A stretch of 47,090 bases of DNA. Origin: Escherichia phage HK630. The notes beneath the pieces were generated by a model. It ran no database searches and was not told the origin of the DNA. It saw only the letters and a list, made by a program, of their open reading frames with translations. Of the stretch, positions 19,462 to 21,785 are shown piece after piece. The position numbers were made by a program, and so were the translations under genes. The DNA is taken from sequence record NC_019723.1, one strand, 5' to 3'. Numbering within the stretch: position 1 is the first letter of the stretch; the number at the start of each line of letters is the position of its first letter.

Positions 19462-21785
19462 ATGGCAGTAAAGATTTCAGGAGTCCTGAAAGACGGCACA
19501 GGAAAACCGGTACAGAACTGCACCATTCAGCTGAAAGCCAGACGTAACAGCACCACGGTGGTGGTGAACACGGTGGGCTCAGAGAATCCGGATGAAGCCG
19601 GGCGTTACAGCATGGATGTGGAGTACGGTCAGTACAGTGTCATCCTGCAGGTTGACGGTTTTCCACCATCGCACGCCGGGACCATCACCGTGTATGAAGA
19701 TTCACAACCGGGGACGCTGAATGATTTTCTCTGTGCCATGACGGAGGATGATGCCCGGCCGGAGGTGCTGCGTCGTCTTGAACTGATGGTGGAAGAGGTG
19801 GCGCGTAACGCGTCCGTGGTGGCACAGAGTACGGCAGACGCGAAGAAATCAGCCGGCGATGCCAGTGCATCAGCTGCTCAGGTCGCGGCCCTTGTGACTG
19901 ATGCAACTGACTCAGCACGCGCCGCCAGCACGTCCGCCGGACAGGCTGCATCGTCAGCTCAGGAAGCGTCCTCCGGCGCAGAAGCGGCATCAGCAAAGGC
20001 CACTGAAGCGGAAAAAAGTGCCGCAGCCGCAGAGTCCTCAAAAAACGCGGCGGCCACCAGTGCCGGTGCGGCGAAAACGTCAGAAACGAATGCTGCAGCG
20101 TCACAACAATCAGCCGCCACGTCTGCCTCCACCGCGGCCACGAAAGCGTCAGAGGCCGCCACTTCAGCACGAGATGCGGTGGCCTCAAAAGAGGCAGCAA
20201 AATCATCAGAAACGAACGCATCATCAAGTGCCGGTCGTGCAGCTTCCTCGGCAACGGCGGCAGAAAATTCTGCCAGGGCGGCAAAAACGTCCGAGACGAA
20301 TGCCAGGTCATCTGAAACAGCAGCGGAACGGAGCGCCTCTGCCGCGGCAGACGCAAAAACAGCGGCGGCGGGGAGTGCGTCAACGGCATCCACGAAGGCG
20401 ACAGAGGCTGCGGGAAGTGCGGTATCAGCATCGCAGAGCAAAAGTGCGGCAGAAGCGGCGGCAATACGTGCAGAAAATTCGGCAAAACGTGCAGAAGATA
20501 TAGCTTCAGCTGTCGCGCTTGAGGATGCGGACACAACGAGAAAGGGGATAGTGCAGCTCAGCAGTGCAACCAACAGCACGTCTGAAACGCTTGCTGCAAC
20601 GCCAAAGGCGGTTAAGGTGGTAATGGATGAAACGAACAGAAAAGCCCACTGGACAGTCCGGCACTGACCGGAACGCCAACAGCACCAACCGCGCTCAGGG
20701 GAACAAACAATACCCAGATTGCGAACACCGCTTTTGTACTGGCCGCGATTGCAGATGTTATCGACGCGTCACCTGACGCACTGAATACGCTGAATGAACT
20801 GGCCGCAGCGCTCGGGAATGATCCAGATTTTGCTACCACCATGACTAACGCGCTTGCGGGTAAACAACCGAAGAATGCGACACTGACGGCGCTGGCAGGG
20901 CTTTCCACGGCGAAAAATAAATTACCGTATTTTGCGGAAAATGATGCCGCCAGCCTGACTGAACTGACTCAGGTTGGCAGGGATATTCTGGCAAAAAATT
21001 CCGTTGCAGATGTTCTTGAATACCTTGGGGCCGGTGAGAATTCGGCCTTTCCGGCAGGTGCGCCGATCCCGTGGCCATCAGATATCGTTCCGTCTGGCTA
21101 CGTCCTGATGCAGGGGCAGGCGTTTGACAAATCAGCCTACCCAAAACTTGCTGTCGCGTATCCATCGGGTGTGCTTCCTGATATGCGAGGCTGGACAATC
21201 AAGGGGAAACCCGCCAGCGGTCGTGCTGTATTGTCTCAGGAACAGGATGGAATTAAGTCGCACACCCACAGTGCCAGTGCATCCGGTACGGATTTGGGGA
21301 CGAAAACCACATCGTCGTTTGATTACGGGACGAAAACAACAGGCAGTTTCGATTACGGCACCAAATCGACGAATAACACGGGGGCTCATGCTCACAGTCT
21401 GAGCGGTTCAACAGGGGCCGCGGGTGCTCATGCCCACACAAGTGGTTTAAGGATGAACAGTTCTGGCTGGAGTCAGTATGGAACAGCAACCATTACAGGA
21501 AGTTTATCCACAGTTAAAGGAACCAGCACACAGGGTATTGCTTATTTATCGAAAACGGACAGTCAGGGCAGCCACAGTCACTCATTGTCCGGTACAGCCG
21601 TGAGTGCCGGTGCACATGCGCATACAGTTGGTATTGGTGCGCACCAGCATCCGGTTGTTATCGGTGCTCATGCCCATTCTTTCAGTATTGGTTCACACGG
21701 ACACACCATCACCGTTAACGCTGCGGGTAACGCGGAAAACACCGTCAAAAACATTGCATTTAACTATATTGTGAGGCTTGCATAA
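19462..21785 (+). pseudogene. stf: side tail fibre stf split by a 1-nt frameshift into orf-401 (19462-20667) and orf-314 (annotated 20841-21785; its frame is open from 20631)
   Basis: Ala/Ser-rich shaft ORF stops at 20665-20667 after ...RKAHWTVRH; the next frame continues [31 protein letters not shown]... Adding one C to the run at about 20647-20651 would fuse them. Confidence 0.85.

Follow-up and report, generated by a model that had tools for sequence, protein, structure and literature searches.

The lambda PaPa stf frameshift and its linked laboratory-stock markers in the genome of Escherichia phage HK630

The side tail fibre gene stf of Escherichia phage HK630 (NC_019723.1) is split by the loss of a single base, by which a run of four cytosines (CCCC) has become a run of three (CCC). 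The mutation is the textbook stf allele of lambda PaPa and as such already known; its two reading frames, orf-401 and orf-314, are said to have been described by Hendrix and Duda in 1992. The stretch of DNA that was analysed, here called the window, has a length of 47,090 nucleotides and represents the whole genome, permuted to begin at nu1. Very probably the allele was inherited from a laboratory lambda stock which later recombined with an HK620-like phage. The value added by the present analysis is small: it consists of corrected coordinates of the C-run, a laboratory descent that is backed by markers, and the description of the genome as a lambda × HK620-like hybrid with a variant shared with HK629.

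According to the list of open reading frames and their translation, the upstream frame of stf runs from the ATG at 19462 to a TGA at 20665–20667 and encodes 401 amino acids with the C-terminal end RKAHWTVRH. In the −1 frame a TGA at 20628–20630 is followed by an open frame that extends from 20631 to the stop codon at 21783–21785. Both frames are jointly open over 34 nucleotides, and any insertion of one base (or deletion of two) within this overlap would reunite the gene. The sole C-run of the overlap is the CCC at 20645–20647, found in the context AAAAGCCCACTGG. Addition of one C to this run in silico results in a single ORF that encodes a rebuilt Stf of 774 amino acids. Between 20631 and the first ATG (20841) lie 70 codons that read as normal Stf coding sequence. 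The deletion is located at codon 395/396 and is followed by six out-of-frame residues (HWTVRH) and the stop. A preliminary description of this DNA had given the end of the upstream frame and the start of the downstream one at 20631 as translation now places them, and the protein it had predicted for one extra C is reproduced exactly by the repair. The position it had assigned to the run, about 20647–20651, has to be corrected. The coordinates of all features are listed in Table 1.

Table 1 Features of the stf region and two neighbouring lineage markers in the window
Feature	Position	Strand	Basis
5′ stf fragment (lambda orf-401)	19462..20667	+	ORF, translation, Pfam and PDB match; same coordinates annotated in HK629
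Lesion, CCC where intact stf has CCCC	20645..20647	+	Alignment and allele counts
Two-frame overlap, 34 nt	20631..20664	+	TGA 20628–20630 (−1 frame), TGA 20665–20667 (0 frame)
3′ stf part (hinge, distal rod, receptor-binding tip), −1 frame	20631..21785	+	Translation, Pfam Collar and Phage_fiber, PDB
orf-314 as annotated, sub-part of 3′ stf	starts with ATG 20841	+	Identical to lambda reference
tfa (lambda orf-194), tail fibre assembly chaperone, intact	21785..22369	+	Pfam Caudo_TAP (E=1.5e-43); identical to EMG2 Tfa
Terminator-like hairpin between lom and stf, T-tract T7 at 19444–19450	19423..19450	+	Sequence comparison
Lineage-informative site in J at lambda 18835: laboratory T (Tyr1111), Ur-lambda G (Asp)	18646	+	Alignment
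Lineage-informative site in stf at lambda 21714: G (Ser689)	21526	+	Alignment

The intact and the broken form of the gene were compared in a 6.2-kb alignment of five sources. CCC is present in the window, in HK629 and in the lambda reference NC_001416, and CCCC in KT232076 (the prophage of K-12 CV601) and in LC730321 (Lambda_AGU). The prophage of the E. coli K-12 strain EMG2, which is accepted as the source of Ur-lambda (PMC11990801), likewise has four cytosines; the comparison with an intact Ur-lambda stf, which the preliminary description had proposed as a check, thus gives CCCC at the run in all three sequences. Relative to these three, the run contains the sole indel within stf, and the gene shows no damage beyond it. 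An otherwise undamaged stf fits a recent lesion. KT232076 is annotated with one tail fibre gene of 2,325 nucleotides, and the EMG2 prophage possesses an intact stf of 774 codons, whose product is identical to the repaired Stf in 773 of 774 residues, the sole difference being S689 in the window and N689 in EMG2.

Between the window and the lambda reference, orf-314 is identical and orf-401 has a single residue difference, which falls where the reference stands apart from all other lambda sequences compared. The same CCC together with the same division into orf-401 and orf-314 in NC_001416 bears out the reading of the preliminary description that this is the stf allele of laboratory lambda (PaPa). 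Both genomes also share the stop, the two ORFs and the flanking genes lom and tfa. The gene order around stf (J, lom, stf, tfa, ea47) is that of lambda, and the nucleotide identity to lambda and its derivatives amounts to 99.9–100 % between 19300 and 22500. However, the reference has T6 instead of T7 in the terminator between lom and stf, it carries substitutions at lambda 20661 and 22444 which are absent from the window, and the window has an immunity and replication region other than that of lambda. Ur-lambda, as represented by the prophages of EMG2 and WG1, has CCCC and four trimeric side fibres that bind OmpC. Its Tfa is identical to that of the window, but apart from the run it differs from the window at lambda 542, 17183, 18835 and 21714.

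The consequences of the break can be read from the domains of the repaired protein. Pfam assigns phage_tail_N to residues 1–134, a Phage_fiber_2 repeat to residues 358–396, a Collar domain to residues 533–580 and Phage_fiber repeats to the vicinity of residue 640, and a scan of the repaired protein against NCBIfam gave zero family matches. Residues 1–94 match the collar domain of Stf in the solved Ur-lambda virion (9e7m/9mgh), and residues 518–774 match the receptor-binding tip of T4 gp37 (2xgf) with E=8e-73. OmpC binding has been reported for both the Stf tip and the gp37 tip (PMC12617516). However, gp37 belongs to the essential long fibre of a myovirus, whereas Stf forms an accessory side fibre of lambda, which is here severed from its anchor. 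[quoted passage not shown] Since the hinge of this map occupies residues 394–422 and the lesion lies at codon 395/396, the break coincides with the boundary between rod and hinge. Judged from the domain matches, hinge, distal rod and gp37-like tip are missing from the 401-aa product, whereas its tail-collar domain and proximal coiled-coil rod are preserved. The distal coding sequence of stf and the chaperone gene tfa are undamaged. The frameshift separates the OmpC-binding portion of the fibre from the portion by which it is anchored at the gpV/gpM junction.

Virions of lambda PaPa are devoid of side fibres (PMC12617516; citing Hendrix and Duda 1992). In phages that possess them, these fibres bind OmpC and accelerate adsorption 10–30 fold while the titre remains unchanged (PMC12617516; PMC3509688; both citing Hendrix and Duda 1992), and the unglucosylated O16 antigen is overcome by Ur-lambda and not by PaPa (PMC11990801). 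By analogy, the virion encoded by the window would lack side tail fibres and carry the central J fibre only, and its adsorption to OmpC-positive cells would be about 10–30 times slower, with normal plating.

Independent information about the origin of the allele comes from the surrounding DNA. A variant table was compiled against the lambda reference, the re-sequenced laboratory stock PV340536, Lambda_AGU and the EMG2 prophage, and a site was regarded as informative if Ur-lambda (EMG2, Lambda_AGU) differs there from laboratory lambda (reference, PV340536). Five sites are of this kind: lambda 542 in nu1 (silent; C in laboratory lambda, T in Ur-lambda), lambda 17183 at J residue 560 (laboratory A, Glu; Ur-lambda G, Gly), lambda 18835 at J residue 1111 (laboratory T, Tyr; Ur-lambda G, Asp), the C-run itself after lambda 20832 (stf frameshift; laboratory CCC, Ur-lambda CCCC), and lambda 21714 at stf residue 689 (laboratory G, Ser; Ur-lambda A, Asn). 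The window possesses the laboratory allele at all five, and the same is true for HK629. In addition, the substitution A>T at lambda 31966 (exo D21E) is common to the window and PV340536 only, and the window contains none of the substitutions that are private to the reference strain. Because of the five linked markers and the shared 31966 A>T, the frameshift was very probably inherited with the surrounding laboratory-lambda DNA.

One of the markers is linked imperfectly. At lambda 21714 PV340536 and the reference have G, as do the window and HK629, and A is found in EMG2, in Lambda_AGU and in every natural CCCC locus that extends over this position; two lambda-type contigs, whose identity to lambda ends at 21737, combine CCC with the Ur allele A. 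The very probable descent from a laboratory stock is now supported by five linked markers, and the earlier proposal of such a descent holds for the lambda-derived part of about 39.5 kb only.

The distribution of both alleles in public collections was determined with 61/62-mers centred on the C-run. The site is present in 97 of 5,426 complete E. coli genomes, with CCC in 21, CCCC in 75 and an exact match to neither allele in the remaining one. Judged from their names, 20 of the 21 strains with CCC are DE3 or BL21-type expression strains. The last one, BH212, harbours a heteroimmune lambda of laboratory type, in which P is directly followed by a ninI-type phosphatase; this layout looks like the laboratory nin5 deletion. 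The CCCC set includes EMG2, WG1, NCM3722, J53 and several cattle isolates. Among phage records CCC occurs 14 times, in lambda stocks, imm434, DE3, DN1, a lambda mislabelled as Campylobacter phage and HK629; with the exception of HK629, all of them are laboratory lambda or its derivatives. Three phage records have CCCC, namely KT232076, lambda imm21 and Lambda_AGU.

Among the GTDB species-representative genomes 19 matches to CCC and none to CCCC were found, all in assemblies of organisms other than E. coli, e.g. Chromatium, Pseudomonas, Shewanella and Kitasatospora. Several of the contigs are lambda-sized or of low coverage, and the matches have the alleles of the reference strain at every site covered; they look like contaminating commercial lambda DNA. 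The viral contigs of IMG/VR contain seven loci with CCC, whose identity to laboratory lambda as well as to the window is 99.75 % or more, and nine with CCCC, which are 97.2–99.7 % identical. Past the junction, seven of these nine remain open for 385 codons, an eighth is closed by a stop after 46 codons, and in the ninth the frame reaches the end of the locus. Natural relatives from the E. coli genomes and from IMG/VR, which are diverged by 0.3–2.8 %, have CCCC throughout, and none of the four collections (E. coli genomes, phage records, GTDB, IMG/VR) gave CCC on a diverged background. As CCC was found solely within the clade of laboratory lambda, in sequences with 99.75 % or more identity to it, and the diverged relatives have CCCC, the latter is the form that occurs in nature and the ancestral one.

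The window is not lambda throughout. Positions 1–33334 correspond to lambda 191–33522 and positions 40696–46901 to lambda 42297–48502, both with 99.97 % identity, and 46902–47090 is lambda 1–190; altogether about 39.5 kb (blocks of 33.3 kb and 6.2 kb) are laboratory lambda at 99.97 %. From 33335 to 40695, a region that comprises immunity and replication, only short patches can be aligned to lambda. The interval 33300–40750 is 98.5 % identical to HK620 over 94 % of its length, and according to an exact-protein look-up its O-like protein is the same as AAK28872 of HK620 and is shared with one further phage record, AFH20802. The window does not possess the lambda immunity region (cI, cro, rex, N) together with lambda O/P. 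This foreign immunity and replication region limits the laboratory descent to the lambda-derived 39.5 kb, and the genome is a hybrid of lambda and an HK620-like phage and not lambda itself.

The window shares its left arm with HK629 (NC_019711, 'Lambdavirus HK629'). Its left 28,977 bases have the same coordinates and 99.955 % identity, and it shares the CCC allele, all laboratory markers and the T7 of the lom–stf terminator, which is private to these two phages; T6 is present in all other lambda sequences compared and in all other 35 scanned loci that cover the tract. However, the early, immunity, nin and lysis regions of HK629 are unrelated to those of the window or only 94–99 % identical, and its lambda-identical DNA amounts to 32.5 kb compared with 39.5 kb in the window. 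DNA maps of lambda have been described to fit HK630 better than HK629 (PMC7671359), which agrees with the larger lambda share in the window. The simplest reading would be that one T7-marked sub-line of laboratory lambda underwent recombination with different wild lambdoid phages on at least two occasions.

The arrangement of lambda structural arms and a foreign immunity segment is also known from the heteroimmune laboratory hybrids imm434, imm21 and DE3. CCC is found in lambda imm434 and DE3 as well, and lambda imm21 (OM418625) has CCCC. Unlike in these laboratory hybrids, the foreign segment of the window is HK620-like and extends to the replication genes. Records that would attest to a deliberate construction of this hybrid were not found, and a search for the origin of the isolates HK629 and HK630 gave nothing relevant in the searchable literature. 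HK629 is recorded as an isolate from Hong Kong, which at face value indicates a natural origin.

By far the most probable history is the one given at the outset, i.e. a lambda PaPa allele that came with a laboratory stock. Loss of one C from CCCC at codon 395/396 leads translation out of frame, through six wrong residues and into a stop, and hinge, distal rod and tip are still encoded, undamaged, in 20631–21785 but unjoined to the part that anchors the fibre in the tail. The deletion would not have been acquired separately but inherited with the lambda DNA at 1–33334 and 40696–47090, and a cross between the laboratory stock and an HK620-like phage would have brought in the immunity and replication region. 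The lambda parent would belong to the same sub-line from which the left arm of HK629 is derived. The differing non-lambda partners of the window and HK629 fit repeated recombination and give no indication of the location. It is conceivable, albeit rather unlikely, that laboratory lambda got out into the environment, e.g. into sewage, where it met wild HK620-, HK022- or HK97-like phages and exchanged DNA with them on more than one occasion; the window and HK629 would then be feral descendants and not the outcome of crosses or contamination in the laboratory of isolation.

Other explanations of the CCC run are still less probable. Slippage can happen in a C4 run, rough laboratory hosts do not require side fibres, which means that their loss could recur in any propagation on K-12, and HK629 is catalogued as a Hong Kong isolate; these points speak for an independent slippage at the same run in a wild lambda-like phage without any laboratory ancestry. 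It is nevertheless a very improbable event given the laboratory alleles at five of five sites, the one substitution in common with a laboratory stock, lambda portions with 99.97 % identity to laboratory lambda and natural relatives which, at 0.3–2.8 % divergence, have CCCC without exception; it was rejected as CCC never occurs on a diverged background in the four collections. An error of sequencing or assembly, by which the real phage would have an intact stf, was the objection named in the preliminary description, and miscalls in homopolymers are common. However, the run consists merely of three bases, and the record of HK629 carries the same CCC. Furthermore, two flanking markers (18646 and 21526), together with three further sites across the genome, assign this segment to the laboratory lineage, for which CCC is the established genotype, and an error would need to strike exactly the site that defines this lineage. 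In view of the linked markers and the HK629 record a miscall is extremely improbable and was rejected.

The last alternative accepts the split and assumes that it is bypassed in vivo, either by −1 slippage on A_AAA_G (20640–20644) or by separate translation of orf-314, whereby some functional fibre would be formed. Indeed, tRNA-Lys on AAA 20641–20643 can re-pair perfectly on AAA 20640–20642, the shifted product would be a full-length Stf with the single change A395S, and a Shine-Dalgarno-like sequence (TAAGGTGGT) is located at 20613–20621, about 18 nucleotides upstream. This spacing exceeds the range known for stimulators of −1 frameshifting, in which the Shine-Dalgarno sequence is situated 10–14 nucleotides away. 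There is no heptamer of the form X_XXY_YYZ in 20631–20664 but A_AAA_G only, and no stable downstream structure was found, as the fold of 20600–20720 has z = −1.16 and 27 of 200 shuffled sequences fold as well. Nor is the two-frame layout conserved: the diverged relatives, and 75 E. coli genomes, have CCCC, and since relatives encode a single ORF no selection for a shift site is to be expected. With regard to separate translation, the ATG at 20841 has no obvious Shine-Dalgarno sequence immediately upstream, and orf-314 is devoid of the collar domain needed for attachment to the tail. Finally, the published virions of lambda PaPa show no side fibres (PMC12617516). Programmed or leaky frameshifting, for which heptamer, structure and conservation are all absent, was rejected and has hardly any probability left.

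The PaPa mutation explains why laboratory lambda is fibreless and adsorbs slowly, and those who use the phage for studies of adsorption or host range should probably expect PaPa-like behaviour. Restoration of fibres that bind OmpC should be possible by the addition of one C. The CCC run and the four substitutions linked to it can serve as a provenance marker, according to which the structural half of both the window and HK629 goes back to a domesticated laboratory stock. Owing to this laboratory origin, the J, stf and head genes of both phages should not be treated as independent natural variation in comparisons or in the taxonomy of lambdoid phages. The laboratory ancestry of a phage of the 'HK' type is in itself a minor curiosity. 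Of practical use is a 38-mer spanning the site, which reveals contamination by commercial lambda DNA in unrelated assemblies, as in 19 of 19 species representatives other than E. coli.

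The immunity and replication region of the HK630 genome (window 33335-40695) is not that of lambda. Across 94% of this region, identity to the lambdoid phage HK620 is 98.5%, and the region encodes an O-like protein identical to that of HK620 (AAK28872), so the genome is a hybrid of lambda and an HK620-like phage.

Between lom and the side tail fibre gene stf, the T-tract of a terminator-like hairpin comprises seven thymines (window 19444-19450). The same T7 is present in HK629, a phage recorded from Hong Kong that has its left arm in common with HK630, and T6 is found in all other lambda-type sequences checked in which the site is covered. 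To judge from these sequences, T7 is a private marker tying both phages to a single lambda sub-line. Furthermore, HK630 carries an A>T substitution at lambda 31966 (window 31778) that changes exo codon 21 from Asp to Glu. The only other sequence to share it is PV340536, a re-sequenced laboratory lambda stock; the lambda reference (NC_001416), the prophage of E. coli BH212, and Lambda_AGU and the EMG2 prophage, both of the Ur-lambda type, all lack it. This substitution may tag a laboratory sub-lineage.

At lambda 14266, 20661, 22444, 25662, 31016, 34934 and 45618, the reference has alleles that none of the other lambda genomes in the comparison carries. The scanned contigs were typed at two of these reference-specific sites, one in the 5′ fragment of the split stf (orf-401) and one in the tail fibre assembly chaperone Tfa.

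Reference-specific sites used for typing, with their protein changes
Lambda position	Window position	Protein change
20661	20473	orf-401 E338K
22444	22256	Tfa E158K

The stf junction was detected in 19 GTDB species-representative genomes (L027-L045), all of them non-E. coli assemblies, among them Chromatium, Pseudomonas, Shewanella and Kitasatospora. Several of the matches lie on low-coverage contigs or on contigs of about 48.4-48.5 kb, and they carry the alleles of the reference strain at the sites covered. These matches have the appearance of contamination of public assemblies by commercial lambda DNA. Since the reference alleles at both typed sites recur in these contaminant contigs, they are genuine mutations carried by the sequenced cI857 Sam7 strain and not old sequencing errors.

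Two lambda-type metagenome contigs from IMG/VR (L016 and L023) have the frameshifted CCC run of stf and, at lambda 21714, the Ur allele (A), so the linkage between the frameshift and the S689 substitution is imperfect among laboratory lines. Lambda identity stops in both at lambda 21737, perhaps because the b region is deleted or the sequence is a vector arm. The CCC allele also occurs in the heteroimmune lambda prophage of BH212 (NZ_CP029239.1, 816954-857014), whose layout resembles the nin5 deletion. The BH212 record names 'Homo sapiens' as host and annotates many genes as frameshifted; the prophage looks like a laboratory construct within an error-prone assembly. Another IMG/VR locus, L018 (IMGVR_UViG_2698536590_000004), possesses a natural CCCC stf with a stop 46 codons past the junction; this stop is either an assembly error or a different lesion of the gene that arose independently.
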